A stretch of DNA of 64,000 nucleotides from Escherichia phage APCEc01, in the sequence record NC_029091.1; one strand, 5' to 3'. Position numbers and translations under genes: made by a program. Numbering within the stretch: the first letter of the stretch is position 1; every line of letters begins with the position of its first letter. This document shows, piece by piece, positions 12,558 to 64,000 of this stretch. The notes under the pieces are model-generated. The model saw only the letters and a list, made by a program, of their open reading frames with translations, ran no database searches and had not been told where the DNA came from.

Positions 12558-12588
12558 AAAAATGGGAGACCGAAGTCTCCCAAAATAA
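12558..12588. terminator. bidirectional terminator between small ORF and gene 23
   Basis: GGGAGAC-cgaa-GTCTCCC hairpin flanked by A/T runs. Confidence 0.65.
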
Positions 12589-12605
12589 GATTTAATCAAT
12601 TAAGA

Positions 12606-14174
12606 TTAGATGCCTTTTACATATACACGGCGGAAGTAAGCGTTCTTACCAAGGCTGTTCAGGATAGATGGCATACCGGACTGGATGCGAGCACCTGGAG
12701 CCTGCAGGGAACTTTCAGCAAACGGGTTAACACCGATACCGTAACGAGTTTTAAAGCCCATTACCGGCTGGAAGTTCTTAGGATCGGAACCACGCAGCGG
12801 GGTAAGTGCAACGTAAGGAGCATAGTAAATACCTGCATCCATTTCGTTAGCGCCTTTGTAACCAACGGTGAAGTAATCCTGTTTAGCATACTGGTCGATG
12901 TATACGCGGTATTTACCACCAAGTACACCGGCAAATACAGACTTAGTAGTGTCGGTATTAAAACCAGAAGCCAGACCCTGTGCAGCGTAAGAAATACCAG
13001 TATCAACTGAAGCCAGTACGTTAACTACGTTACGGGAAGCGATAATGAAGTTACCTTCACCGCGACCGGTTTGACGAGCAATTTCAACTGCTTCTTTATC
13101 AATCTGGAACAACAGAGATTTAAAGCTTTCACCGGCCCAACGAGCACCACGGATATCAATCGGGTCCTGGAAGTCAAATACACCAGCTTTAGAACCCGGA
13201 GTCAGGGTCATACCAGATTTACCAACCTGTGCAGAGTAGTTAATCCAATCAACAACTTCACGGTTGATTTCTAGCATAATTTCTGTAGCCAGAATACCGC
13301 TCAATTCAGCATCAGCATCCATACCGTGTACTGCACGGAGGTCTTGTGCTAATTCGATAGAGTAAGCAGCTTTCAGCTGGCGAGATTTAGCTTCGATAAC
13401 TTGTTTATCGATACGGAAGCCCATTTCATTCCATGGGTTATCGGTAGAACCGTTGAAACCTTCCTGGAGTTCAGCGATAGAAGTAGCCATACCTTCAGCG
13501 ATTTCTACCAGTGCACCAGCTTCCATTTGTTTCTTAACTTCTGCATCTAATTTAGCTGCATCAGTTGCACCAGAATCAAGTGTTACGACAGCAGAAGCTT
13601 GCAGATATACAGTACCAGTTTCTTGGAAGAAGTGAGTATAGATATCACCTACAACAGTAGTAGTGCCAGCAGCCAGAGCTGGGAATTTCTTAGCAGCACC
13701 CTGACCAGAGAACATCGCATCTGGAGCATACATCGGATGGAAAGCTTCTTTAGCGCCAGCAGCGATAGGGTCTTTACCATATACTGCACGGAGAGCAAAT
13801 ACCTGACCGGTCGGGCTGTTCATAGGCTGAACACCACAAATATCAAAAGCGATCAGATTAGGAATAGCACGACGAACCATACCCATAACTGCCGGCCCAA
13901 TTTGGGTTACTGCACCAGAGGTTTGACCCGCTGCGATGTTCTGAGCATTATAACCATGGTCACCACCAATTTCAGCTTCGGTCAAGAAAGAACCAAATGC
14001 CTGAGCGATTTTCTCGTCTTTATATTCAGGGGATACTTCGAAATCTTTTTCCTGGTTTTCGAAGATTTTAGCGATAATAGCCTGCTTGCTGTTAGCGATT
14101 TCCGGCAGGCCTTCACCTTCCAGCAGTTCTTTCCATTTGTCTACGAGCTGAGCTTTAGTTTTGATAGTAGTCAT
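12606..14174 (-). CDS. 23: gp23 major capsid protein
   Basis: 522 aa; near identical to T4 gp23 as recalled over almost the whole length. Confidence 0.97.
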   Translation of the reverse strand: MTTIKTKAQLVDKWKELLEGEGLPEIANSKQAIIAKIFENQEKDFEVSPEYKDEKIAQAFGSFLTEAEIGGDHGYNAQNIAAGQTSGAVTQIGPAVMGMVRRAIPNLIAFDICGVQPMNSPTGQVFALRAVYGKDPIAAGAKEAFHPMYAPDAMFSGQGAAKKFPALAAGTTTVVGDIYTHFFQETGTVYLQASAVVTLDSGATDAAKLDAEVKKQMEAGALVEIAEGMATSIAELQEGFNGSTDNPWNEMGFRIDKQVIEAKSRQLKAAYSIELAQDLRAVHGMDADAELSGILATEIMLEINREVVDWINYSAQVGKSGMTLTPGSKAGVFDFQDPIDIRGARWAGESFKSLLFQIDKEAVEIARQTGRGEGNFIIASRNVVNVLASVDTGISYAAQGLASGFNTDTTKSVFAGVLGGKYRVYIDQYAKQDYFTVGYKGANEMDAGIYYAPYVALTPLRGSDPKNFQPVMGFKTRYGIGVNPFAESSLQAPGARIQSGMPSILNSLGKNAYFRRVYVKGI

Positions 14175-15042: not shown

Positions 15043-15679
15043 ATGCTTTTAAACTCTCTGCGAGAGCTTTAAATGCTTCGTCAGCACTGTTTTTGGTGAT
15101 TTCCACCGAATTTTCTGATTCTGATATTTGTTTAGGAGTAACCCAAGCATCTGGAGCAGAAGGTCCCCATACGGCATCTACGCCGACGGTTAATTTAAAT
15201 CCTTCGTTCACGATACGGTACCCTTTATTGGTGTCGGTTAAAGAACCAAGACCACGAGAGGAAACACCTGGAATCCAACCAGCTCGTATATTAGCAGCTA
15301 ATTTATCGCCGGGACCATGGTCGCCTTCAATAATTCTAGCACGTCCATATACATCGTTTCCTTTCCACCACATATCTTCGATAATGATAGCGGCTTGCAT
15401 AGGGTCAACATTTGCACGAGGTGGATGGTTTAATTCTCCAAGGGCTTGTTTGGTTGCGACTTGTTCTTTAATATAGTCACTTACTGCTTTTTCCAAAACG
15501 CGTTTAGGATATAAACGTTTATTTCGGTTAACAACCTCTGCCTGAAGAAAAATACCTTCTATATAAAGCCCTGGTTTTAAGCCAGAATCTTTTCCATCAT
15601 GAGATTCCAACATTGGAACGCCATCAATAATCTCACCGGGTTGACCCCAAGTTTCAATAAGTAACTCGGGTTTATTCAT
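15038..15679 (-). CDS. 21: gp21 prohead core protease
   Basis: 213 aa; [20 protein letters not shown]... matches T4 gp21 as recalled. Confidence 0.9.
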   Translation of the reverse strand: MNKPELLIETWGQPGEIIDGVPMLESHDGKDSGLKPGLYIEGIFLQAEVVNRNKRLYPKRVLEKAVSDYIKEQVATKQALGELNHPPRANVDPMQAAIIIEDMWWKGNDVYGRARIIEGDHGPGDKLAANIRAGWIPGVSSRGLGSLTDTNKGYRIVNEGFKLTVGVDAVWGPSAPDAWVTPKQISESENSVEITKNSADEAFKALAESLKAL

Positions 15680-17950: not shown

Positions 17951-17998
17951 TGGACTTCTCCGTCATCACGGGAAGCTGGGGATTTCTCCCCAACCAGA

Positions 17999-18490
17999 TT
18001 ATTCCCACCAATCAAGAGCAAGAGTTACTTCGAACGTTTCAATCTCGTTATTGCTGTCCCAGTCAAGAGATACTTCGCCAACGTTAGTAGGCCACAAGCC
18101 GACAATTTCAACTTCTTTAGTGACCGTTTTAGCATCACGGGCAAATTGACGAACGATAGCAGACTTTTTATATTCAGCAGGTTTACCACCGGTAATTTCA
18201 TTACCTTGTCCTGCTGCAATACCTTGCCAATCAACAAATTTCTGACGAATGCTATGAGCATCATCGTTCATTACTGTAATAGTCCAATCATCGAATGTAC
18301 GATCACCGGCCACGTTAATTTTACGGTTCATATAAGAAACAGGAACCTTTTCAACAATCGCAGCAGGAAGAGCCGTAGCACGACACTGGAAGCTAAAGTT
18401 TTGCCCAAGATAAGAGATTTCTACTTCGAACAGGTTAGGGCGAGCGAAATCACCTGATTCGAAGGCACGAGTTACGTCATCTACAAACAT
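17999..18490 (-). CDS. 19: gp19 tail tube protein
   Basis: 163 aa, as T4 gp19. Confidence 0.9.
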   Translation of the reverse strand: MFVDDVTRAFESGDFARPNLFEVEISYLGQNFSFQCRATALPAAIVEKVPVSYMNRKINVAGDRTFDDWTITVMNDDAHSIRQKFVDWQGIAAGQGNEITGGKPAEYKKSAIVRQFARDAKTVTKEVEIVGLWPTNVGEVSLDWDSNNEIETFEVTLALDWWE

Positions 18491-26983: not shown

Positions 26984-28566
26984 TATTTTACCTTAATGAT
27001 ATAGTTTAAAGAAATATTCCATGGACGAGTTTCATTTCCAATTAATTCTGGACGATTCATGGTATATTTAGAGTTACGCTGAGACGCTGGATCAATTTCA
27101 TATCCTTCGTTAGTAAAATATGAACGGTTATCCCAGTCAAGTCCTTTACGAGTACCAACAAAGTTTGAACGACGAGTATTACCAAATGCACCGGAATCGT
27201 CACGTTCGCCAAAACCACCAGCGTGCTTATGATACGACATCTGTTGTTTTTGCACTTCACCGACATATCCACCGGTACAACCTTCCGCCAGACGAGGCTT
27301 ACCGAATTGGTCATTACCATTAACATTAGGGTTAGTTAAATGGTTACCACGACCTGAGCCGCGAACAAATAATCCACGCATATCAGGCAAGCCTGGGTTA
27401 GAAGAGCTACCACCATATCGTGTCCCAATTCTGGAAGCATATACAGGACATTCTGAAGCAGAAACGGTCCCACCATGACAGAAGCGCCAGTCAGAACTCG
27501 GTAAACTATCTGCAGCCCACATTGTAATAGCGCCAACTGGAAGAATTCGGTCCAATTCATTTTGAGTCACAATACGATTGCCTTGAATATAACCACCGGT
27601 CATATTGACATTACCCGTTATATTAGCGCCACCAGAACCAACCGTCAACGTATTATTAATGCGAAGCGTGCCATTAATAGTTTGTCCGCCTCGTTGGTGG
27701 ATAACATCAGCATTCCAAGCAAGGGCAGAAGAACCATCACCACCTGATTGGCTACCCGCTTGTGTAGTTAAACGAACAACTCCACGTAAAGAAGTTGTAG
27801 CCCCACGCCCGTTTAATGTTGCGCCGGTCACTACAACTGAAGAGTTGTTACTATTTACTTCAGTCTGTGTCCCTAGTTTAACGACACCTTTATTAGTTTC
27901 TGATGCTACTGAATTCATAAAGGTATAAGGTGAAATTGCATAGCCTTCACGCAGGGTGCCTTGTTGTGCTTGAGCAACTGTAGCCAAACGAACAACACCG
28001 GTAATAGATTCGGTGGCGTCACCATTATTTGGAGCAATTTGTGAAATAAGTTTAATTGCTAATTGTTGTGTTTTTAACGGGGTCATTGCCGTTGTATCGT
28101 CAGAACCAGCTAATGCCGCAGCAGAAGTTGAAATTTTAATTACACCATTTGTTGCTTCTGTTGACACTTTTGTCTGAAATACATTGTCTATTTTTTGATT
28201 CAATTTAAGCGGAGTAATTGATGCATCGTCAATAGCTCCAGTTACTGCTTCATCTCCAGTAGCATAACGAGTTAAGCCATATTGAGTTTCAGTTGCATTA
28301 GGATATTGTAGACGAGCATTCAGTGTTGCCGGAGTAACAGCTTTACTATTATCTAATCCATCAATAACTTCTTGTGGAGTAGCTATTTGAATAATTCCAG
28401 GTGTAGTAGTTGTTGCTTCCGGTACGCCATTAACACCTGAAGGAGAAATGGCAGCTAATGCGGCTTGGACATTAGTGACTGTGTCTGGAAAATTCGACCC
28501 CGTAGGGTCGAATTCAACGTAAATGGATTCGTTTGAAACGTGTTGGTATGTATTGTTATTACTCAT
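26983..28566 (-). CDS. 12: gp12 short tail fibre
   Basis: 527 aa, equal to T4 gp12; repetitive Gly/Thr-rich N-terminal region. Confidence 0.85.
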
Positions 28567-36067: not shown

Positions 36068-38037
36068 TGTGAAATAGGCTCCAAATCTATAGTTAAGTAC
36101 TGAGGACGTAAGTCATTTTCGAATACGATTAAAGAACCATCCTTTGTAAAAATAATATCATCTGCAGGGTCGGAATAAAGTTCAATTGTTTGAACTTCAA
36201 AACGGTCTGAAGTGAGGTCAATTTTAGCAATGTTCCAATAAATCGAATCGGCAGGATAATTCACTTCACCAATTGAATAGTATTTGTTTCGTCCGTCAGT
36301 AACAGTAAGTTTATTAAAATCATTACCTGTATAAGGTTGTATATTTTCGTTTTCAACAACATCACCGTCCGCAAATGGACCAATAATAACTTGACCTATG
36401 CCACGGTCATTACGGTCAGAAGATACTATGCGAACACCATATTTAATAGTTTCGTTTGCATTTTCTGGATTAGGTCTGTGCGAATCAAACGAGAATATAT
36501 TAGATTCCATCGATCTATCTTTAATCTGATTATTGTATTTAATACCGGCCTCAGGCGTTTTATAGAAGTTTTGTACTTCGCGAACCATTTGAATAGTAGC
36601 TGAAGAACCAATAATAGAAATATCTGCATCATCGACATAAGTTAGCATTTTAGATTTTGCAAACGATGAGTTAAAAATTTCTACATCTTCAATATAATAT
36701 CGGTCAATTTTATTAATAATTTGCCCTTCAAGATATTGCTCTGATTCTTGAAGTTTATTCAACGCGTATGTAACTTTGATATTCATTTTGATAAACAAAT
36801 AATCAGGCGAAATAACAACAGGTGTAATAGTCCCTAAGTTATAATCATTCAAATAGTTTTTGATATCATCACGTTGGACAGAAGTCAAATACAATCCAGA
36901 TTTAGGCTTAGCAGCAATATATGCGTACCCTGGTTTAGATGAATCTGTGAATGTTTGAACCGCCTGAATAATAGAACCAAACCGCTCAGAAACGAATGTG
37001 TCATAGTCGGGAGCGGTTACACAACGTTGTTGAGTTTCGCGTTTAATTGTGCCTAATTCGCGGATACGTTCAATATCTTCAGGGTCACCACCGCCGTCGG
37101 CCCCAACAAAGTCTGGGTTATTGCTAGGGTTCTCATTAATATCTATTACCGTGATATTAGCTAATGTATCAGCATAAGAAAATCCTACAGCACCGTTAGC
37201 ATCTGCGCCATTAGTAGAAATATACTCAATTACGATTTTAGAACCCTGAACAGGTTTAAGGCCACCAATATAGTTAGATGTTAACGCACCTTCTGACGTG
37301 TTAATAGAGATTTCGCCTTCACCAAAATAAAATTCGGTGTTCCCATCAACTGTTTCACGCATATAATAGATTGTTGACGTAGAACCAGCGTGAACCATCG
37401 ACTTACGAGTCCAGTTAATCCATTCTGCTCCGTCAACATACAACTTAACCAAATTACGGTCAATATTCTTATCACGAATAATGATAGGTTTTAATCTATC
37501 AAATGTTAATTCAGTGCGAACAATACGTCCTTGAGCTAATCGAAGACGTGGAAAATATTGGTTATTTTTGTCTTTAACTACAATGACATCTTCAGTAGAA
37601 ACAAAGTTATACGGGTTAACAGAAGTATCTTTAGCGTATGCTAAGAAACGAGTGCCACGTGGAATGGTGATATAGTTTCTATTTAATGCATCTGTACATG
37701 TGAGCATAATTTCTGTTTGTGCTGCTGATTTAGATGAAGGCAGATATCCGTTATCTTGAGCCGCTTGTACAACAGAACTACGCAAGTTTGCAGTACGCAT
37801 AAAACTTTCATACACTGCACTATTACTGAACTGTTGGATGTAAAGAGTGTTATATGCTAAAAGGTCGCACAATACGTTTAAGCGTGAACCTTCAAAATCA
37901 TAATCAAGAAATTCATTCTGTCCATTGAGCCATTCGATAATGTTCTGTTTGATTTCGGCAAATGTGCCCCCGATAAAAATCTCGGGAATAGCATTCGCTG
38001 TTCGGGTTAATTGATAATTTACAGGAGTGTTTGCCAT
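36064..38037 (-). CDS. 6: gp6 baseplate wedge subunit
   Basis: T4 gp6 begins MANTPVNYQLTRTANAIPEIF; this is residue 20 of the track ORF, so start set at 38037 instead of 38094. Confidence 0.85.
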   Translation of the reverse strand: MANTPVNYQLTRTANAIPEIFIGGTFAEIKQNIIEWLNGQNEFLDYDFEGSRLNVLCDLLAYNTLYIQQFSNSAVYESFMRTANLRSSVVQAAQDNGYLPSSKSAAQTEIMLTCTDALNRNYITIPRGTRFLAYAKDTSVNPYNFVSTEDVIVVKDKNNQYFPRLRLAQGRIVRTELTFDRLKPIIIRDKNIDRNLVKLYVDGAEWINWTRKSMVHAGSTSTIYYMRETVDGNTEFYFGEGEISINTSEGALTSNYIGGLKPVQGSKIVIEYISTNGADANGAVGFSYADTLANITVIDINENPSNNPDFVGADGGGDPEDIERIRELGTIKRETQQRCVTAPDYDTFVSERFGSIIQAVQTFTDSSKPGYAYIAAKPKSGLYLTSVQRDDIKNYLNDYNLGTITPVVISPDYLFIKMNIKVTYALNKLQESEQYLEGQIINKIDRYYIEDVEIFNSSFAKSKMLTYVDDADISIIGSSATIQMVREVQNFYKTPEAGIKYNNQIKDRSMESNIFSFDSHRPNPENANETIKYGVRIVSSDRNDRGIGQVIIGPFADGDVVENENIQPYTGNDFNKLTVTDGRNKYYSIGEVNYPADSIYWNIAKIDLTSDRFEVQTIELYSDPADDIIFTKDGSLIVFENDLRPQYLTIDLEPISQ

Positions 38038-47064: not shown

Positions 47065-47372
47065 CCGGGTCGCTACCGGCAAGTCGTCGGACTGATGTTC
47101 CCTGAGTAAGGACTGGTCTTAATAAATCTTTACGATTTGTTAATATCCCCTTACATCACAGCAGAAACGGCGCACAGAATTATCGATTCGAGGAAATATC
47201 TTTGTCGTAAGCCGAGTAGCGTTTTTGACGGAACGTTCGGATATGGTCGAGATATGGCCTTTTAAAAATATTGAGTAGCGTCAACTGCTTAATAACCGGG
47301 TTCGAATCCCGGCGTTTCGTACAAACACTTGCCTTAGCAGGTGGAACCCCGACAAGGTTGCCGCAAGGCTTA
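47065..47372 (+). ncRNA. putative small stable RNA region (position of T4 rnaC/rnaD species 1 and 2 RNAs)
   Basis: about 300 nt with no plausible plus-strand ORF, tRNA-like T-arm CCGGG-TTCGAAT-CCCGG at about 47287, ends at a terminator. Confidence 0.3.
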
Positions 47373-47400
47373 GCCCCTTCCGAAAGGTCGGGGCTTTTTG
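47373..47400 (+). terminator. rho-independent terminator
   Basis: GCCCCttccgaaaggtcGGGGC followed by TTTTTGG; same motif family as 47916 and 63611. Confidence 0.6.
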
Positions 47401-47444
47401 GCATAATAATAAATAGATAAGTTAATTAACTTAGGAAAAGCAAC

Positions 47445-49104: not shown

Positions 49105-49698
49105 ATGAACACACTGAAGAAACTTGTTGAATTCATCCGCACTAAACTTGGTACTGCTATGGCTAAAAATCTGACTGTCGAAGAACAGTATAACGCAGCT
49201 GCAGATAAGTTGATTACCCAAATCAAAGAACTAAAAACGGCTTCTGTTAAATCTATTAATGAAGAAAAACGTATTCGCGAACTTGTTAATGAAAAGAACA
49301 AACAAGCCGCTTCTAAGGAACGTGAAATTCGTAAGCTCTTGGCTGAAGGACAAGATGTTACCATGCATGCTAAGCTTGGTCTTCTGTATCGTCGAACTGC
49401 CGAACAACTTAATACAAAGGCTGACGGGTATGCCGCTATGCGAATTGAAATTGCTCGTAAGGTGGTTGAACTTGATGATGCTCGTCAGAATCTGGCAATC
49501 AAACTCGAATACATTCGTGAAACTCGAGCAGCCAATGCCCTTGGTATCTCTACGGCTGATGATGTAATTGAAATCGCTGCACTGACTAAGGTTGATATCG
49601 AAGACACTCTGACTCGTGTTGAAACGTTCAATGGCACTCCAGCCGGTGTCGAAACCACTTCTGCTGATGTACAAGAATATATTAACTCTTTGAAATAA
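49105..49698 (+). CDS. hypothetical coiled-coil protein (197 aa)
   Basis: ORF, predicted mostly helical; the minus-strand ORF 49231-49749 is a shadow. Confidence 0.5.
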
Positions 49699-51363: not shown

Positions 51364-51636
51364 ATGTCTAAAGAACAAACCGAACTGGCTGAAGCTGTAG
51401 CAAAAATCTATGCAGCTATTGAGGCTGCCAAAGAAATTGCTGATAAACAAAACACAACATTCAACTTGTACCCAGCTTATGGTATGGGTGGAACCTATCA
51501 TTCACCCGGACATCTTAAAGCCGATCTTGAACGTTGTACAAAAAACGGCTATGCTGAATGGGCTGACGTTTACCAATACGACTACAACCTGAGCCTCGAA
51601 ACTGGTGGTTGGGTCGCATCTTCTCACACTTGCTAA
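51364..51636 (+). CDS. hypothetical protein, GWV-x-SS-x-x-C family, member 2 (90 aa)
   Basis: ends ...GGWVASSHTC; SD AAGGAA. Confidence 0.5.
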   Translation: MSKEQTELAEAVAKIYAAIEAAKEIADKQNTTFNLYPAYGMGGTYHSPGHLKADLERCTKNGYAEWADVYQYDYNLSLETGGWVASSHTC

Positions 51637-51645
51637 GGAAACAAT

Positions 51646-51843
51646 ATGTCTCGTGAATTAGATTGTGCTGTACGTACGGCAGTAGCTGCTCTGGAAAACC
51701 TGTTCCAAATTGCAACAGAAGAACGCGAAGAAGTTACATTATGGATTGAAGATAACGCAGGTCTGAATCTCCAGGACGCGATCTCATTATCCCACAATAG
51801 TATCACTGTTCAAGGCTGGGTATCATCTAGTTATTCTTGCTAA
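51646..51843 (+). CDS. hypothetical protein, GWVSSS-x-x-C family, member 3 (65 aa)
   Basis: ends ...QGWVSSSYSC; SD AAGGAA. Confidence 0.5.
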   Translation: MSRELDCAVRTAVAALENLFQIATEEREEVTLWIEDNAGLNLQDAISLSHNSITVQGWVSSSYSC

Positions 51844-55187: not shown

Positions 55188-55635
55188 GAAAAATAAAGTG
55201 AAAGAACTATCAGCCGGTATTATTTTCCTTACCGAAGATAAAGAATTATTCATGGGGCGTGTAACTGGTTCTCGTCCTAAAGGTGCATTAGCTCATCGGT
55301 GGGATATTCCTAAAGGCCGTGTCGAACCTGGCGAATCTCCTATTGAAGCCGCTATTCGTGAATGCGAAGAAGAAACTGGGTTTACACAATATGACCCTGC
55401 CTTCCTGAAAGACCTAGGTGAACATCATTACTCAGACAATAAGAATATTCATCTGTTCCTATATACCATCCCTGTAGAGCACGAGCAATTCAGAAACAGT
55501 GTTTGTAATTCCTATCATACATTCCCAGACGGACGACAGATTCCTGAATTTGATGCATTCGCTTTAATTAAACCTTCTCAATGGGAATATGTAATGGGTA
55601 AATCATTATATAAGGTGCTCACTACACTCCTATAA
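55177..55635 (+). CDS. nudE: Nudix hydrolase NudE
   Basis: 152 aa; Nudix box GRVEPGESPIEAAIRECEEETGF; immediately upstream of e as T4 e.1. Confidence 0.8.
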   Translation: MMSKKNKVKELSAGIIFLTEDKELFMGRVTGSRPKGALAHRWDIPKGRVEPGESPIEAAIRECEEETGFTQYDPAFLKDLGEHHYSDNKNIHLFLYTIPVEHEQFRNSVCNSYHTFPDGRQIPEFDAFALIKPSQWEYVMGKSLYKVLTTLL

Positions 55636-55669: not shown

Positions 55670-56158
55670 ATGAATATATTTGAAATGCTTCGTAATGACG
55701 AAGGTCTTAGACTGACTTTATACAAAGACACTGAAGGCTTTTGGACGATTGGCATAGGCCATTTAGTAACAAAGAACCCGTCTTTAGCCGTAGCTAAAGC
55801 TGAACTTGACAGAATGATCGGTCGTAAATGCAACGGTACAATTACCCTTGATGAGGCTGAAAAGCTATTTAATGAAGACGTTGATAAAGCCGTCCGCGGA
55901 ATCTTGGGTAATGCTAAACTTAAACCGGTATATGATTCTTTAGACGCAGTTCGTCGGTGTGCATTGGTCAATATGGTCTTCCAAATGGGTGTAGCAGGAG
56001 TCGCCGGTTTTACTAATTCTCTTCGTATGCTTCAACAGAAACGTTGGGATGAAGCGGCAGTAAATCTAGCCCAATCTAAATGGTATCGTCAGACACCTAA
56101 TCGCGCGAAACGCGTAATCTCAACATTTAAAACAGGAACTTGGAAAGCGTATATATGA
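55670..56158 (+). CDS. e: endolysin (T4 lysozyme)
   Basis: start at [15 protein letters not shown]...; catalytic-site context [12 protein letters not shown]; matches T4 lysozyme as recalled; track ORF starts 4 codons upstream. Confidence 0.92.
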
Positions 56159-57579: not shown

Positions 57580-57909
57580 ATGAAAACATATCAGGAGTTT
57601 ATCACTGAAGTTACATTATCTGCGGAACAGAAAGCTGCTATCGAAGAAGGTAAAAATCCCAAAGTAACATACAAAGTAAATAGTAAAGGCGTTTTTGATG
57701 GCTTGGTTCAAGACCCTGAATTGAAAAAAGCTCTTTCTAAAACTAATGCGTACTTTGCTCCTAAATTTAACACAGCCGGTGTACTTATTGGATTGGACGT
57801 ATTCAACTCTAAAGGTGTTCTATCTAATGCCTTTGGTTATGCCGCTAACAAAATTACCAAAGCAGCATGGGAATCCAATACCAAACAAGCTCAAAAGCCT
57901 AGAGTATAA
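57580..57909 (+). CDS. internal-protein-like protein with CTS MKTYQEFITE (109 aa)
   Basis: N-terminus matches T4 CTS consensus. Confidence 0.6.
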   Translation: MKTYQEFITEVTLSAEQKAAIEEGKNPKVTYKVNSKGVFDGLVQDPELKKALSKTNAYFAPKFNTAGVLIGLDVFNSKGVLSNAFGYAANKITKAAWESNTKQAQKPRV

Positions 57910-58082
57910 TTCTTGCCTAATAAAGGGAAACGCAACCTCTCCTCATGAACGTCGAGTCCTCTGAGTGATGTACCTTTTCCAACCTGTAATAAGGTCGAGC
58001 CCAAGTGCGGTAATGGGTTTACATAGCGAGTCGAAGGACCTAACATGTGCCACGGAATGGCCCAAACCTTAAGAGAAATAAT

Positions 58083-58622
58083 ATGAGAACATTTTTAACT
58101 GGACCTTATCTATCCCTGATGAATGCTTTTACACACCATTCTGATGCTAGAGTAGAAGAAATTTGTAAGAACGGTTATGTCCCACCATTTGAAGACGTAC
58201 TCAAGCAGTACTGTACACTTCGTTTAGACGGCGGCCGACAATCAGGTAAATCAATTGCTGTGACTAACTTTGCTGCTAATTGGCTGTATGATGGCGGAAC
58301 AGTTATTGTTCTTTCTAATACTTCAGCTTATGCTAAAATTTCTGCTGGCAACATTGAAAAAGAATTTTCGCGTTATTCTAGCGACGATATTCGATTCCGT
58401 TTATTTACTGATTCTGTTCGTAGTTTTATTGGCAATGAAGGTTCTAAATTCCGTGGATTAACGCTTTCTCGTATTCTGTATATAATTGACGAGCCTATTA
58501 AAGCTCCTGATATGGATAAGATTTACAATGTACATATTAAAACAGTCCAACACTGTTGCAAAAGCAAATATTGCATCGGCGGTAATGCTCGTCCTCAATT
58601 TTTTGTGATTGGAATGCAATGA
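58083..58622 (+). CDS. P-loop NTPase of unknown function (179 aa)
   Basis: Walker A GGRQSGKS and Walker B-like ILYIIDEP; first ATG at 58083 (track start is GTG). Confidence 0.5.
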   Translation: MRTFLTGPYLSLMNAFTHHSDARVEEICKNGYVPPFEDVLKQYCTLRLDGGRQSGKSIAVTNFAANWLYDGGTVIVLSNTSAYAKISAGNIEKEFSRYSSDDIRFRLFTDSVRSFIGNEGSKFRGLTLSRILYIIDEPIKAPDMDKIYNVHIKTVQHCCKSKYCIGGNARPQFFVIGMQ

Positions 58623-58927
58623 TGACCACTATTGAAGTTTTTGAATATTGTTATAACAGCCCAGTATGCAATAAAAGGGCCCTTGTAGAAAATTACGAGA
58701 TTTACCATTTTAAACCTAAACGATACCGTTTGACTAAAGGTCCGTTCGCAGGGCAGCAGGTTCTTTGTACTGCTCCTAATGCACGGTTGATGACTAGTAT
58801 TCCACATTTCAAAATGGAATTTATTGACGGGCCATTTAAGGGATTAATCACTCAAAGTTTAATGGCGTTTAATTCCGACCCATTTTTGATTAAAGAAAAA
58901 ACTTGGATAAATTTATTTTCTAATTGA
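58619..58927 (+). CDS. hypothetical protein (102 aa)
   Basis: ATGA overlap with upstream gene. Confidence 0.45.
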   Translation: MMTTIEVFEYCYNSPVCNKRALVENYEIYHFKPKRYRLTKGPFAGQQVLCTAPNARLMTSIPHFKMEFIDGPFKGLITQSLMAFNSDPFLIKEKTWINLFSN

Positions 58928-58933
58928 GGTTAT

Positions 58934-59296
58934 ATGAAAGCATATCAAATTCTTGAAGGCACACACAAAGGCACTATTTATTTTGAAGACGGTACTCAAG
59001 CCCGGATTATTGTCTCTAAGACTTTTAAAGAAGACGCTATTGTAGACCCGGAAATTTTCTACGGTTTGCATGCCCGTGAAATTGAAATTGAACATCACCC
59101 TAAAGTTAAAATTGAAGGTGGTCAACATCTGAACGTTAACGTTCTGCGTCGTGAAACTCTAGAAGATGCAGTTAAGCATCCAGAAAAATATCCGCAGCTG
59201 ACCATCCGTGTATCTGGTTATGCAGTTCGCTTTAACTCTCTGACTCCGGAACAGCAGCGCGACGTTATCGCTCGCACCTTTACTGAGAGTCTATAA
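58934..59296 (+). CDS. grcA: autonomous glycyl radical cofactor (GrcA/YfiD-like; T4 Y06I-type)
   Basis: 120 aa; C-terminal glycyl radical motif [27 protein letters not shown]; C-terminal ~57 aa match E. coli GrcA as recalled; host-like codon usage in 3' half. Confidence 0.8.
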
Positions 59297-59520
59297 TGGC
59301 TAAATTGATTATAGAAGGGTCTGAAGATGTTTTAAAATGTTTTGCCGCCTGGTTTAGTTGCTCAGGCGAGCAATCATTCACTGAAGCATTTAGAATGGGT
59401 GATATTACCGGAAACTATCCGGCAACTGATATCACTGTACGTGGATATGGTATTAATGAGCCTATCCAATTGGTCGAATATGACCTTGCCACTGATGAGG
59501 AAATTCCTTATGTCGATTGA
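59296..59520 (+). CDS. hypothetical protein (74 aa)
   Basis: overlapping stop/start with grcA-like gene. Confidence 0.45.
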   Translation: MAKLIIEGSEDVLKCFAAWFSCSGEQSFTEAFRMGDITGNYPATDITVRGYGINEPIQLVEYDLATDEEIPYVD

Positions 59521-59776
59521 AGACATCAAAGGCTACAAGCCGCATACCGATGATAAAATCGGTAAAGTGAACGCTATTAAAGATGCAGAAGTCCGTCTTG
59601 GATTGTTGTTTGATGCTCTGATTGAAGAAGCATATATCTTGAAAGAAAATGAAACAGAGCAACAAACCAAAGAAGATATGGATGCAGTGCAGGCTCTTAA
59701 GTATGCTAAGCAACATCTAAAAGAAGCCAGCATGTGGGCGTGTCGTGCAGTATTTCGACCTGAGGAAAAATACTAA
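59511..59776 (+). CDS. hypothetical protein (88 aa)
   Basis: ATG at 59511; longer track ORF from 59342 overlaps the upstream gene and is less likely. Confidence 0.4.
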
Positions 59777-59991
59777 TGGCTTCTACTATTACTGGGTTAT
59801 TGGACTTTCAAGAAAAGGTCAACAAAATTTGTAGTGAATACTTAAAGTATCTTGAAGAAGACCTTGAAGATTGTAAGGAAGAAGGCGAAGAAGACTATGC
59901 TGACCAGCGTCGACGCCAAATCGAAGAGATGAGGCATTTCGCCAATATGGTATCTAAAGAATCTTGGGCTTTAACTCCATTTTATCAATAA
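59776..59991 (+). CDS. hypothetical acidic protein (71 aa)
   Basis: ATGA-type overlap, SD AGGAAA. Confidence 0.45.
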   Translation: MASTITGLLDFQEKVNKICSEYLKYLEEDLEDCKEEGEEDYADQRRRQIEEMRHFANMVSKESWALTPFYQ

Positions 59992-59995
59992 AGTA

Positions 59996-60044
59996 GTTTA
60001 CTTCTCCTCTAGTTGTGTTACTATAGACCTGTCAACTAGAGGAG
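59996..60044 (+). promoter_or_regulatory. early promoter (GTTTAC, 17 nt, TACTAT) inside perfect 12-bp inverted repeat that includes the SD
   Basis: CTCCTCTAGTTG at 60004-60015 and CAACTAGAGGAG at 60033-60044. Confidence 0.6.
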
Positions 60045-60052
60045 AAATCAAA

Positions 60053-60511
60053 ATGACTATCAATTCAGACGTTTTTATCCGCCGTAATAAACTCCGTCGA
60101 ATCTTTGAAACGGAGTTCCGCAAAATAAATGCCGGTATAAAAGATGCTGCAAAGTCTCTTGGACTACCAGGCTTTCATATCAAGTATTCTCAACATCTCT
60201 TAGATCGTGCCATCCAGAGAGAAATAGATGAGAATTACGTTTTTGAATTATTTCATAAAGTAAAAAATCATGTTAAAGAAGTTGCAGAATTTTTATCAAT
60301 GCCGGCACGTCCAGATGTTGATGAAGATTTTGTCGAAGGTGTCGAATATCGCCCAGGCCGTTTAGAAATAACTGATGGAAATCTTTGGTTAGGACTTACA
60401 GTTTGTCGCGAAAATCCGGCATTCAAAATGAAGACTCTTCAATGCAGAATGGCTATTATTAACAATAAACGACTACCAGGAAAAGCTTCTAAAGCAGTGA
60501 TTAAAATCTAG
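60053..60511 (+). CDS. regB: RegB site-specific endoribonuclease
   Basis: 152 aa; MTINSDVFIRRNKLRR...KYSQHLLDRAIQREIDE...LQCRMAIINNKRLPGKASKAVIK matches T4 RegB as recalled. Confidence 0.9.
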   Translation: MTINSDVFIRRNKLRRIFETEFRKINAGIKDAAKSLGLPGFHIKYSQHLLDRAIQREIDENYVFELFHKVKNHVKEVAEFLSMPARPDVDEDFVEGVEYRPGRLEITDGNLWLGLTVCRENPAFKMKTLQCRMAIINNKRLPGKASKAVIKI

Positions 60512-60519
60512 AGGTAAAC

Positions 60520-61062
60520 ATGAGAAAAGCACTACTCGCTGGTCTATTTGCTCTTTCATTATCAGCACATAGCTCCGAGCATACTTTTAGTAATGTCCAA
60601 CTCGATAACTTGAATTATGCTTATCAGTTTGGGGAACAGTTTTCTAAGGATGGAAAATTTAAAACGCATGAAAATATGCATAAGAAAGGACTTGGATACA
60701 TAATGGCCGCAATACTATGGCAGGAATCATCTGCCGGTATTAATCTTAAAGATAAGAAAGGTCACCATGCGTATGGAATGTTCCAAAATTATCTACCGAC
60801 AATGAGGGCAAGAATTAACCAGCTTGGTTATAATATGACTGATGCCCAAATTAAGAAAATGCTATCTAAGCGGTCTAATTCAGCCAGATGGGCTTATATC
60901 GAATTTTCTTATTGGTTAAATATACATAACGGGGATATAAGAAAAGCTATATCCTCATATAATGCGGGATGGAAGACAAGTGCCGGAAGTAAATATGCTT
61001 CTGAAGTCCTAGAAAAGGCTAATTACCTTAAATCAAATAAACTACTGGAAATAAAAGAATGA
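60520..61062 (+). CDS. secreted lytic transglycosylase-like protein (SLT domain)
   Basis: signal peptide MRKALLAGLFALSLSAHS; SLT motifs E-S (WQESSAG), AYGMFQ, YNAG. Confidence 0.6.
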   Translation: MRKALLAGLFALSLSAHSSEHTFSNVQLDNLNYAYQFGEQFSKDGKFKTHENMHKKGLGYIMAAILWQESSAGINLKDKKGHHAYGMFQNYLPTMRARINQLGYNMTDAQIKKMLSKRSNSARWAYIEFSYWLNIHNGDIRKAISSYNAGWKTSAGSKYASEVLEKANYLKSNKLLEIKE

Positions 61063-61406
61063 CCAAAATGTTGGCTTTAATAGTTGGCTTGGTTTCATTT
61101 AACGCTCTTGCTAATACTACATATACTGATGTAACGGAGTATACAAACAGAACGGCGTCTGATTACTGTGGTAAAAGTCAAGAGTGTAAAGTAGATTTTT
61201 CACAAAAATTGTTATATGCGTATAAAGACGGAGAAAAAGACGGGGCGTCTAGTAGGTTCAAGGCGTCTACCTTAATTAAAAGATACTATAAAAAATGGCA
61301 AATATTAGAATGCTCGGTGGCGGAACCTAAAGATAAGGCAGCATGCAATTCTATGGTGGACCGTCTAGTTGACTCTTATAATAGAGGACTTGCAGCAAGT
61401 GATTAA
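61059..61406 (+). CDS. secreted small Cys-containing protein (115 aa)
   Basis: signal peptide MTKMLALIVGLVSFNALA; four Cys residues. Confidence 0.5.
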   Translation: MTKMLALIVGLVSFNALANTTYTDVTEYTNRTASDYCGKSQECKVDFSQKLLYAYKDGEKDGASSRFKASTLIKRYYKKWQILECSVAEPKDKAACNSMVDRLVDSYNRGLAASD

Positions 61407-61866
61407 AAACTATATCAAGGGCGATATTGTCGCCCTGTTTTCTAAAGGTAATAATATTGCTCATGGGTGTAATTGTTTTCATACAATGGGCGCGGGTGTG
61501 GCAGGACAATTAGCAAAGGCTTATCCAAAAATTCTGGAAGCCGATAAACTTCAAACCGAATTCGGAGACGAGTCTAAACTCGGGACTTATTCGGTTTATG
61601 AAAAATATTTTAAGACCCATAAAGCTTATTGCTTTAATCTTTATACACAGTTTGAGCCGGGACCTAATTTTGAGTACTCTGCTTTAATGAATTGTATAAT
61701 AGAATTAAATGAATTCGGAAAGAATAAGATAATAAAGCCTGTAATTTATATGCCAAGAATTGGTGCAGGTATTGGTGGTGGAAACTGGGATGTCATCGAA
61801 GAGATTTTAGATACGTATTCTACTAAACTAGAAATTGTGATTGTTGATTGGGAACCGTTATTATGA
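61399..61866 (+). CDS. macrodomain-like protein (ADP-ribose binding/processing fold), probable GTG start
   Basis: motifs GNNIAHGCNCFHTMGAGVAGQL and PRIGAGIGGGNWDVIEEIL resemble macrodomain N-x(6)-GGGV and P-x-I-S-T-G-x-x-G signatures; no in-frame ATG before the first motif. Confidence 0.5.
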   Translation: MIKNYIKGDIVALFSKGNNIAHGCNCFHTMGAGVAGQLAKAYPKILEADKLQTEFGDESKLGTYSVYEKYFKTHKAYCFNLYTQFEPGPNFEYSALMNCIIELNEFGKNKIIKPVIYMPRIGAGIGGGNWDVIEEILDTYSTKLEIVIVDWEPLL

Positions 61867-62075
61867 ATATACATTATCCACATCCATATGACCCAAAGAA
61901 TAAGGCAGTAATTATTCGTCAATGGGAACGCATTTGTCGTACCAAATGTCCAATTAATAGTCCACATGATGTAGATAAAGACTACATCGGAACATTCGTT
62001 GAATATACCTTTATTGATAAGAAAGGCCGTAAACAACATGTAGAAGAATATTGCTTAAAGGTGACATGGCTATGA
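61863..62075 (+). CDS. hypothetical protein (70 aa)
   Basis: ATG overlapping upstream stop (ATGA). Confidence 0.45.
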   Translation: MNIHYPHPYDPKNKAVIIRQWERICRTKCPINSPHDVDKDYIGTFVEYTFIDKKGRKQHVEEYCLKVTWL

Positions 62076-62278
62076 GTCAAACAAAAATTCTTACAGGTGC
62101 TAAATGCGAAAAATGCGAATGGCCTGTAGTTTTTGCTTTATGCAATGACGAAATGGCTTGTGATTTTGATTATTGGTGTTACTGTTCGAACAAAGGTTGT
62201 AGCAATCATAAAGGTGAAGGGTTTTACTCAGGATTTTACCCTTACCCAGATTTCGTTAAAGAAGGTGAACCTAAATGA
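62066..62278 (+). CDS. Cys-rich small protein, putative zinc ribbon (70 aa)
   Basis: C-x2-C (CEKCEW) and further Cys pairs; start 62066 or 62072. Confidence 0.45.
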   Translation: MAMSQTKILTGAKCEKCEWPVVFALCNDEMACDFDYWCYCSNKGCSNHKGEGFYSGFYPYPDFVKEGEPK

Positions 62279-62457
62279 AATTGACTAAAGAAGAGAAAAC
62301 TAAACTGTTCGAACTTATCCATGACCTATTGGATGAGCAAGCAGCCACCAATGCGTACGATGAATATGCTCCTTTGACGGACGAAGAATATCAAGCATTG
62401 TTGGAATCATTTGACAGGAAAGAACAAGAACTCATTGACTATGTGAATTCACTATAA
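62275..62457 (+). CDS. hypothetical acidic protein (60 aa)
   Basis: ATGA overlap. Confidence 0.45.
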   Translation: MKLTKEEKTKLFELIHDLLDEQAATNAYDEYAPLTDEEYQALLESFDRKEQELIDYVNSL

Positions 62458-62466
62458 GGGACTCTT

Positions 62467-63048
62467 ATGGCTAGTTTAATTTTTACCTATGCCGCTATGA
62501 ACGCTGGTAAGTCTGCTTCATTACTTACTGCTGCACATAACTATAAAGAACGTGGCATGGGTGTATTAGTTCTTAAACCGGCTATTGATACTCGCGATTC
62601 AAAAGGTGAAATAGTCTCTCGTATTGGTATTCGTCAGGATGCCAATATAATTACAAAAGACATGGATATCTTTGAATTTTATAAATGGGCTGCAGCACAA
62701 AAGGATATTCATTGTGTATTTGTTGACGAAGCTCAGTTCTTAACTACTGAAAAGGTGTATCAACTTAGTCGTATTGTTGACGTGTACAATGTGCCGGTAA
62801 TGGCATATGGACTACGAACAGATTTTAAAGGTAATCTATTTGAAGGTTCTCAAGCATTAATGGCTATTGCCGATAAGCTTGTTGAACTTAAAGGTGTCTG
62901 TCATTGTGGTAAAAAGGCCACAATGGTAGCTAGAGTCACGGAAGACGGACTTCCAATTACAGATGGCAGTCAAATTGAAATTGGTGATACCGATAGATAT
63001 GTGTCATTATGCCGGAAGCATTGGAATGATTTGACAGGGTTGTTATAA
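62467..63048 (+). CDS. tk: thymidine kinase
   Basis: 193 aa; P-loop AAMNAGKS, Walker B FVDEAQF, C-terminal zinc ribbon CHCGKK...C; matches T4 Tk as recalled. Confidence 0.92.
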   Translation: MASLIFTYAAMNAGKSASLLTAAHNYKERGMGVLVLKPAIDTRDSKGEIVSRIGIRQDANIITKDMDIFEFYKWAAAQKDIHCVFVDEAQFLTTEKVYQLSRIVDVYNVPVMAYGLRTDFKGNLFEGSQALMAIADKLVELKGVCHCGKKATMVARVTEDGLPITDGSQIEIGDTDRYVSLCRKHWNDLTGLL

Positions 63049-63075
63049 ATACTAATATCTAACCAAGAGGTATAT

Positions 63076-63288
63076 ATGCAGCAATTAAACGAAAGACAAC
63101 TTCGTAATCTTACTGTAACCCAATTAGATGAAATCCGAAGAGAATTAGGACATTCTATTTCTCATTTAAACGAGGATATCCGTCAAACTGGTTCTAAAGC
63201 TGATTATACACGCAAGCGCAAGCTGGAAAAATACCTCACAGATGTTAAGGCCGTCCAAAGGCGAAAAATAAATACTGGCCAAAATTAA
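63076..63288 (+). CDS. hypothetical protein (rI.-1 position)
   Basis: 70 aa between tk and rI. Confidence 0.5.
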
Positions 63289-63300
63289 CAGGAGGCCTAT

Positions 63301-63603
63301 ATGGCCTTAAGAGCGATAGCTGTCATAGCGATGCTGGGGTTTTTTGCAGCAACAACTCCTATCGTTGGTACTGCACATATCGACCCATATTTTGATAACT
63401 TTATGGAATCAGGGATTAAAAACGTATATACTTTGTTTGAAATTCAAAATGTCGAGAATTCTGAAAAATTCTATAAGTATATGGCAAAGCATTACAAAAA
63501 TAGCCCCTGTGATGATGCATTTGAATGTCATGAACAAGGCATAAAAACTGCCAGACAATTTGCCGAGTTCATGAAAATAAAATTAGAGCCTACATCTATC
63601 TAA
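63301..63603 (+). CDS. rI: RI lysis inhibition regulator (antiholin), secreted
   Basis: 100 aa; N-terminal signal/SAR segment; DPYFDNFMESGIK...CHEQGIKTARQF resembles T4 RI as recalled; position next to tk. Confidence 0.7.
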   Translation: MALRAIAVIAMLGFFAATTPIVGTAHIDPYFDNFMESGIKNVYTLFEIQNVENSEKFYKYMAKHYKNSPCDDAFECHEQGIKTARQFAEFMKIKLEPTSI

Positions 63604-63610
63604 TTTACTA

Positions 63611-63638
63611 GCCCCTTCCGAAAGGTTGGGGCTTTTTG
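63611..63638 (+). terminator. rho-independent terminator after rI
   Basis: GCCCCttccgaaaggttGGGGC followed by TTTTTGG. Confidence 0.6.
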
Positions 63639-63648
63639 GCATCTATCA

Positions 63649-63677
63649 GTTTACTTCTCCTCAGGTTGTGTTATAGT
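63649..63677 (+). promoter_or_regulatory. early promoter (GTTTAC, 17 nt, TATAGT) with CTCCTC...GAGGAG inverted repeat
   Basis: consensus hexamers; partial inverted repeat includes the SD. Confidence 0.55.
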
Positions 63678-63704
63678 AAACCTTACTTACTAGAGGAGAA
63701 CGTT

Positions 63705-63884
63705 ATGTCACGTAAAGAAAAAATTTCTAAGTTAATGTTTTTGATTGAAGAGTACGCTAATGCGGTATCTGATTGGGAAAATGCTCATGGTTGCGAAGAT
63801 GGAGACATCGACATTAACAGAGCTATGAAAAAGATGGCTGAAGCCCACACCGAATTGCAAATGTATGTTAACGAGATTATGTGA
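63705..63884 (+). CDS. hypothetical protein (59 aa)
   Basis: ATG with SD GAGGAG; the track ORF N-terminal extension overlaps the promoter. Confidence 0.45.
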   Translation: MSRKEKISKLMFLIEEYANAVSDWENAHGCEDGDIDINRAMKKMAEAHTELQMYVNEIM

Positions 63885-63891
63885 GGATATT

Positions 63892-64000
63892 ATGCTTTAC
63901 GATTATACTGGAAAATCTGAAGACGGTGTACTTGAACTTTTACCTGAAAGCGCTGAAGATGATGATACGGTGGTGATGTTTTGTAAAAATGGCCCTGGGG
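63892..64000 (+). CDS. hypothetical protein, partial (3' end beyond window)
   Basis: ATG with SD GAGGA; MLYDYTGKSEDGVLELL... Confidence 0.35.
   Translation, partial: MLYDYTGKSEDGVLELLPESAEDDDTVVMFCKNGPG

Follow-up and report, generated by a model that had tools for sequence, protein, structure and literature searches.

The closest described relatives of the gene treated here are Y06I of bacteriophage T4 and YfiD (also called GrcA) of Escherichia coli, which the relevant passage of PMC8683613 (citing Wagner 2001) presents as two biochemically validated spare-part proteins. According to the same passage, both are activated by the pyruvate formate-lyase (PFL)-activating enzyme, and oxygen-cleaved PFL thereby regains activity (PMC8683613). 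A precedent of another kind is provided by the psbA and psbD genes of marine cyanophages, which show host-phage intragenic recombination and a patchy composition (Sullivan 2006, PMC1484495). Here we describe the ortholog of T4 vs.6, the gene for Y06I, in Escherichia phage APCEc01 (sequence record NC_029091.1). It is an open reading frame (ORF) of 120 aa plus a TAA stop codon at positions 58934-59296 on the plus strand of the 64,000-nt stretch that was analysed, referred to below as the window, which is a segment of a Tequatrovirus genome. The gene and its biochemical role are already known from T4 Y06I and our interest is in its nucleotide structure. We consider it very probable that this is a spare-part glycyl radical gene whose internal segment has been overwritten by host grcA, and that the same has occurred independently in the Jiaodaviruses.

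An earlier note on this DNA, made from the sequence alone, had proposed that the last ~57 residues are identical or nearly identical to those of E. coli GrcA, that the N-terminal half is only distantly related and that the radical domain was recently exchanged with the host gene. All three proposals hold, with a slightly longer identical part than the first assumed. Residues 61-120 (EGGQHLNV...TESL) are 100% identical to E. coli GrcA, while in the first 60 residues only 19 of 59 aligned positions are identical (32%) and indels are present. At the nucleotide level, 175 of the 183 positions from 59114 to 59296 (95.6%) agree with the commonest E. coli grcA allele and all eight differences are synonymous third positions, compared to 89/177 nt (50%) in the 5′ half. 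Divergence is therefore not uniform over the gene, and the similarity to GrcA and Y06I is strong. The maximum chi-square was 95.6, with a break between 59111 and 59112, and none of 2000 permutations reached so high a value.

Since protein constraint could mimic a mosaic of this type, the codon contrast was limited to codons for the same amino acid in phage and E. coli. Identical codons were found at 9/18 such positions in the N-terminal half (N-half) and 52/60 in the C-terminal half (C-half) of the window gene (Fisher p = 0.0023), and at 8/18 and 58/60 respectively in T4 (Fisher p = 1.8e-6). Control phages with nearly the same domain (Slopekvirus, Pseudotevenvirus and T5-like) show about 50% identical codons in both halves. 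The similarity does not extend to the stop codon. The window gene ends with GAG AGT CTA, a tail common to Jiaodavirus and Slopekvirus genes, where E. coli has GAA AGC CTG. As these last three codons are of the phage type, the host-type DNA is an internal patch, at approximately 59112-59284. The mosaic of the earlier note is thus real but its host-type part, placed at about 59100-59296, is somewhat shorter than proposed. In the rest of the window (1-59100 and 59297-64000) megablast gave no match to 5,426 complete E. coli genomes, and the grcA tract is the only stretch of the 64 kb that has one. The DNA 5′ of the ATG and 3′ of the stop codon is unrelated to the E. coli grcA locus (promoter, terminator and flanks). 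Judged by these comparisons, the 3′ half of the vs.6 ortholog is E. coli grcA DNA inserted into an old phage gene.

A proposed island of G/C-ending codons was only partly recovered. The G+C content at third codon positions (GC3) is 0.28 in the 5′ half and 0.37 in the tract, and overall GC is 0.37 and 0.47 respectively. In the tract CTG supplies 4 of 6 Leu codons, CGC 3 of 6 Arg codons and CCG 2 of 3 Pro codons, an enrichment over the 11-13% in the genes of the window. The effect is weak. By GC the tract ranks among the highest 1.4% of 183-nt windows, a level matched by 13 other regions, and its codon-usage score under the window's own usage falls at the 9th percentile. Because composition makes the tract a mere mild outlier, nucleotide identity was relied on as the decisive evidence. 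A GC of at least 0.47 (183-nt windows) is also reached at 12564-14043, 15129-15428, 17958-18143, 27116-27890, 36920-37143, 47182-47417, 49374-49666, 51471-51730, 55232-55439, 55942-56125 and 57880-58071. These other GC-rich regions have no megablast match to E. coli genomes and their composition must therefore have a different cause.

Several of the codons in the tract (CTG, CGT and CCG) are favoured by E. coli, as would be expected if selection at the nucleotide level, through RNA structure, a shared regulatory RNA target or convergent codon optimisation, kept the tract identical to that of the host. There is next to no chance that this accounts for the data: non-optimal E. coli codons (CAA, GTA, AAG, CAT, TAT, GCA and TTT) have been copied as well, and in further phages of E. 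coli (T5-like, Mosigvirus-like) the sequence for this domain is 72-79% identical. An RNA element behind the nucleotide conservation was considered and rejected, with no Rfam family matching and a predicted fold no better than that of shuffled sequences (z = 0.14).

The phage gene into which the host DNA was inserted is old. Every T4-like genus possesses a similarly built gene of 120 aa; in genera other than Tequatrovirus and Jiaodavirus, the identity of the tract to any bacterial grcA is only 73-85%. Alignment of the T4-like and bacterial GrcA N-halves with hhalign gave a probability of 94% (E = 1.3e-7) over 47 colinear columns up to the junction, and phage intermediates bridge the T4-like and bacterial N-half sequences. 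The N-halves are therefore homologous, which argues for an ancient full-length homolog and not for an unrelated phage domain fused to a host fragment. Taken at the level of these alignments, the phage gene is an old full-length grcA homolog that was later patched.

In another conceivable history, a T4-like ancestor captured host grcA or its 3′ half once, long ago, and ordinary divergence followed, the C-half having stayed host-like through protein constraint. The radical domain is indeed extremely conserved in protein across all phages and bacteria, and vs.6 is kept in all the T4-like genomes of Nolan et al. 2006 (PMC1524935). Protein constraint, however, does not preserve synonymous sites. 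Slopekvirus and Pseudotevenvirus, which share 57-58 of the 60 residues, have a DNA identity of 81-83% and about 50% identical codons, whereas the T4 vs.6 tract is 100.0% identical to the major E. coli allele over 174 nt. In addition, sister genera carry different host alleles (21/21 diagnostic sites in the E. coli state in one, 19/21 in the K. pneumoniae state in the other; see below). A single capture is thus very improbable.

To identify the donor, the tract was compared with grcA of 80 bacterial species (GTDB). The nearest relative of each Tequatrovirus tract among them is E. coli (95-98%), followed by E. albertii (92-95%) and then by Citrobacter, and the radical-domain half of the window gene is nearer to its E. 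coli counterpart than is that of E. albertii or of Citrobacter. The related pflB and tdcE genes were ruled out as donors, as phage tracts match grcA at 174-180 of 183 positions and pflB at only 140-145 (175 and 140 respectively for the window). One E. coli genome contains 21 matches to the 174-nt tract, where the median is two (grcA and, most likely, pflB), and five matches lie on records of the E. coli collection labelled plasmid.

The two segments of bacterial grcA diverge in parallel. Relative to E. coli, the 5′ half and the 3′ segment are 97.0% and 96.2% identical in E. albertii, about 87% and 91-94% in Citrobacter, and 84% and 88.5% in K. pneumoniae. This argues for vertical inheritance in the bacteria and therefore for transfer from host to phage. 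The reverse, in which E. coli and K. pneumoniae received the 3′ half of grcA from phages, might be imagined since two-way host-phage exchange has been reported for cyanophage psbA (PMC1484495). Bacterial 3′ halves nevertheless diverge along species lines just as the 5′ halves do, and each of the 5,426 E. coli genomes possesses the allele. Neither the phage-type tail nor the variants of the window occur in any E. coli allele, the closest of which reaches 95.6% identity to the window tract, and the codon choice of the tract is not typical of the phage. We attach almost no weight to transfer in that direction. By all these comparisons, the phage tract nests within E. coli and the direction is from host to phage.

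Comparison with phages of Klebsiella provides a second case. The K. pneumoniae grcA gene is absent from the 80 GTDB loci and was taken from a PLSDB chromosome filed as a plasmid. PLSDB includes whole chromosomes or pieces of chromosomes filed in this way (L171, CP125156.1; L172, LR134122.1), and the grcA of K. aerogenes NCTC10006 carries a frameshift which is probably an assembly error. K. pneumoniae and E. coli grcA differ at 21 diagnostic sites in the 183 positions. Tequatroviruses, including the window, have all 21 in the E. coli state, while Jiaodavirus Klebsiella phages have 19, 17 and 14 of the 21 in the K. pneumoniae state. For the first 100-131 nt some Jiaodaviruses match K. pneumoniae perfectly, others have a single difference in the first 158 nt, and in some the host-type GTT at codon 60 places the left junction one codon further left. 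Across the phage database, the K. pneumoniae allele is matched at 95-99% by 106 records of Klebsiella/Raoultella phages and at 85-88% by E. coli phages; the reciprocal search with the E. coli allele gave the mirror image. As sister genera carry different host alleles, host-to-phage conversion has occurred independently at least twice, once in each genus, and between genera this conclusion from diagnostic sites is firm.

Jiaodavirus and Slopekvirus, the two Klebsiella-phage genera, both have the K. pneumoniae-type residues L77 and E81. The two Slopekvirus records L005 and L006 carry K. pneumoniae-type residues (ETLLDAVEH) in DNA that is about 81% identical to K. pneumoniae grcA. The Slopekvirus domain could represent an older conversion or a convergent adaptation to the host. 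Several IMG/VR contigs (L117 and L156-L163) include a bacterial-type grcA (tract 91% identical to Yersinia, with a bacterial N-half) or the C-termini of full-length PflB; they are likely to be bacterial DNA in viral bins.

Within Tequatrovirus, the mosaic is general. The earlier note had taken the mosaic boundary to be the unusual part, but it is not peculiar to this phage, since T4 and essentially all Tequatroviruses share the mosaic. The tract is carried by about 640 Tequatrovirus records, 294 of which are at least 99% and 347 of which are 95-99% identical to the major E. coli allele (itself found at ≥99% in 5156 of 5432 E. coli records). Over 183 nt the window differs from E. coli at eight positions and T4 at two, which places the window copy among the more diverged versions. 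There are two Tequatrovirus N-half clades, separated by a synonymous divergence (dS) of 0.35-0.47. The N-half of the window belongs to the minority clade; about 160 of the ~640 records show an identity of 95% or more to the window gene. The tracts of T4 and L090, which represent the two clades, nevertheless agree at all of 171 nt. Among T4-type phages (L003, L176-L183) the right-hand end of the E. coli-type sequence falls at one of five nested positions, approximately 164, 167, 170, 173 and 176 of the tract (in the window, the region 59274-59296), and past each of these ends phage-type codons follow (TTC ACC GAG AGT TTG) which are common to other genera. This staircase of right-hand junctions suggests multiple recombination events, and conversion has probably happened repeatedly.

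The same pattern could have arisen with fewer transfers, by one conversion per genus followed by spread and reshuffling through phage-phage recombination, with host conversion a rare event. Recombination among T4-like phages is intense, and vs.6 is well conserved although both of its flanks have diverged strongly. Identical tracts on both N-half clades (T4 and L090) would follow from a crossover at the junction, and crossovers with unconverted alleles could have generated the right-hand staircase. On the other hand, no unconverted Tequatrovirus allele is present in the ~640 records (all are at 95% or above except two at 90-95%), so that the required crossover partners are not evident today. 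Furthermore, 294 records differ from the current major E. coli allele by at most one mismatch, although dS between the N-half clades is about 0.4. We regard such a history as rather unlikely, if still a serious competitor.

O157 typing phage 3 (L179, KP869101.1) was examined as a candidate third independent conversion and rejected, its whole gene being of the Tequatrovirus window type. The record is labelled Mosigvirus although it carries a Tequatrovirus vs.6, which is either a quirk of taxonomy or an exchange of genes between genera.

The allele of the window differs internally from the major E. coli allele at 59128, 59161, 59182, 59215 and 59275, in each case synonymously. The first four of these differences have the states of the nearest unconverted outgroup (L095-L098), with a p value of roughly 0.03. 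This suggests that they are ancestral sites retained from a patchy or partial conversion and not new mutations. By the same comparison, the window allele may be an older or less complete version of the patch.

The identity of the product is well supported. The DNA is 99.7% identical to a gene of Shigella phage JK45 annotated as "autonomous glycyl radical cofactor GrcA", and more than 700 phage records, annotated GrcA or vs.6, match 58934-59296. T4 vs.6 shares 92.8% of its DNA, 114/120 residues and the gene order with the window gene. This high identity, together with the same position between the vs.7 and vs.5 homologs, identifies the gene as the ortholog of vs.6 (Y06I), the T4 homologue of YfiD to which the earlier note had pointed. 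The glycyl radical motif noted earlier was also recovered: Pfam Gly_radical (PF01228) matches residues 60-101 (2e-18), the top PDB matches are YfiD 6OWR (E = 3.5e-42) and PFL 1H16/1CM5 (6.7e-27), and RVSGY occupies residues 92-96, with Gly95 equivalent to G102 of GrcA and G734 of PflB. NCBIfam TIGR04365 aligns residues 18-120 with model positions 23-126 (158.5 bits, E = 9.1e-47). Like the small stand-alone proteins described as GrcA/YfiD (TIGR04365, IPR011140), the gene has its own Shine-Dalgarno sequence and ATG and separate ORFs on either side. Nolan et al. 2006 proposed an NrdD-associated, nucleotide-metabolism role for vs.6 (PMC1524935). The match lists do not support it: the significant matches from NCBIfam and PDB include neither a family nor a chain of NrdD and are all of the PFL/GrcA or PFL2 type.

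By analogy with T4 Y06I and E. coli YfiD, the window protein would serve as a spare part for oxygen-damaged PFL. Host PflA would install the radical on Gly95 and the C-terminal 60-residue domain would dock into PflB cleaved by oxygen at G734, restoring PFL activity. The fermentative supply of acetyl-CoA and ATP could then continue in a microaerobic host whose gene expression has been shut off by the phage. Selection may favour a host-matched domain, since the domain must fit both the PflA and the PflB of the host. For the exchange itself, we envisage that during infection fragments of host grcA invade the homologous phage sequence by means of the phage UvsX recombination machinery. The edges of the tract would be set by where homology begins and ends; the left edge lies at the start of phage-host similarity (codon 60/61) and the right edge slightly short of the stop codon, by a few codons. 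Jiaodaviruses that infect Klebsiella underwent such overwriting independently, the donor in their case being K. pneumoniae grcA. On balance we lean towards the view that virulent T-even-type phages repeatedly overwrite the radical-domain half of the gene with grcA of the species which they currently exploit.

A number of observations weigh against the explanation as a whole or parts of it. T4-type phages break down the DNA of the host and have modified cytosine, both of which would be expected to hinder recombination with the host. Within Tequatrovirus there may have been several conversions, or a single one with later phage-phage recombination, which could account for much of the pattern. Some Tequatroviruses from Salmonella or Yersinia have the E. 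coli allele and not that of the isolation host. Phage Nispero (L174), from K. aerogenes, carries the K. pneumoniae allele with no K. aerogenes-specific variants, and K. aerogenes, tried as a finer test of host tracking, therefore gives no sign of tracking at that level. Such mismatches with the isolation host imply that tracking is at the level of the main natural host and not of each isolate. The composition signal is weak, and the claim of retained ancestry depends on p = ~0.03, the signal being weaker clade-wide, where 6 of 12 unique sites agree. As to function, this is extrapolated from T4 Y06I, from which the N-half differs by six residues, the radical domain being identical. Finally, the TIGR04365 score of 158.5 lies below the equivalog cutoff of 170 bits, a shortfall due to the divergent N-half, which alone scores 13 bits.

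The features of the locus are listed in the Table. The TGA stop codon (58925-58927) of the upstream ORF overlaps the ribosome-binding site of the GrcA-like gene, and the TAA of the latter overlaps the ATG of the downstream ORF (59296-59298). No Pfam family matched the upstream ORF. In the JK45 and T4 annotations of this early region, denV, lysozyme and internal head protein genes lie upstream and regB, vs and tk downstream. Over 58534-59696, vs.6 stands out as a conserved island, 85-97% identical between T4 and the window, while the flanking ORFs in the vs.7 and vs.5 positions are only 40-83% identical. In an IMG/VR T4-like contig of 173,276 bp (L099) the gene stops three codons early (...RTFT, 117 aligned residues), and the extreme C-terminus is therefore dispensable or variable.

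Table. Coordinates of the vs.6 (grcA-like) locus in the window
Feature	Position	Strand	Basis
Upstream ORF, 102 aa, at the T4 vs.7 position	58619..58927	+	ORF list; synteny with JK45 and T4
Shine-Dalgarno-like GAGG, followed 4 nt further on by the ATG	58926..58929	+	Read from the sequence
Complete coding sequence, phage autonomous glycyl radical cofactor, T4 vs.6/Y06I ortholog	58934..59296	+	Annotation, Pfam and PDB matches
Phage-type 5′ half, diverged homolog of the GrcA N-terminal region	58934..59111	+	Codon alignment, hhalign, TIGR04365
Host-type tract, attributed to E. coli grcA DNA, coding for the glycyl radical domain	59112..59284	+	DNA identity, diagnostic sites
GGT, Gly95 of the RVSGY motif, predicted radical site	59216..59218	+	Motif position; 6OWR and 1H16/1CM5 alignment
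Phage-type tail GAG AGT CTA TAA, right flank of the converted patch	59285..59296	+	Codons compared between genera
Downstream ORF at the T4 vs.5 position	59296-59520	+	ORF list

The mosaic is real, extends through the genus and has a counterpart in Klebsiella phages; it is a mild surprise and seems not to have been described before. Our literature searches yielded no account of a nucleotide mosaic of vs.6 and grcA or of tracking of the host, with an earlier mention in Wagner 2001 or in the T4 genome review being possible. A patch of host chromosome of ~170 nt, up to 100% identical to its source, is present inside a conserved gene of the best-studied virulent phage. This pattern of identity points to exchange of DNA between lytic T4-like phages and host chromosomes by homologous recombination in nature, and vs.6 offers a simple, assayable locus at which phage-host chromosome exchange can be measured. 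In practical terms, the tract may give a hint as to the natural host of uncultured T4-like contigs. If overwriting is indeed recurrent, the tract would document which natural host a phage has recently used and would act, in nature, as a reporter of homologous recombination of the phage with the chromosome of its host.

Among known systems, T4 Y06I is the closest: it shares the vs.7 and vs.5 neighbours, the length of 120 aa, the mosaic structure and the left junction, and differs by six substitutions in the N-half (window to T4: T21I, A35S, I36F, H54P, H55Q and K57T). E. coli GrcA (YfiD, 6OWR) is likewise a stand-alone protein of ~14 kDa with the RVSGY radical motif and a detectably homologous N-half, but the phage N-half is seven residues shorter and 32% identical. 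The C-terminal domain of PflB (and of TdcE) has the same fold and motif, with 48 of 60 residues identical to the phage domain. It is the part replaced by the spare part and is not the DNA donor (140/183 positions, against 175/183 for grcA).

The nearest parallel to the mosaic itself is that of the marine cyanophages, in which Zeidner and colleagues reportedly described host-phage intragenic recombination of psbA and psbD in 2005. There too, the phage carries a copy of a damage-prone host part, needed as host expression is shut off, and the copies cluster by host. The present case differs in that it concerns a virulent enterobacterial T-even phage and a short tract (~170 nt), that identity to the allele of a named host species reaches 100% with a clear host-to-phage direction, and that two sister genera carry the alleles of their two hosts. 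It would extend to enterobacterial phages the pattern of cyanophage psbA, in which damage-prone host parts are kept host-matched.

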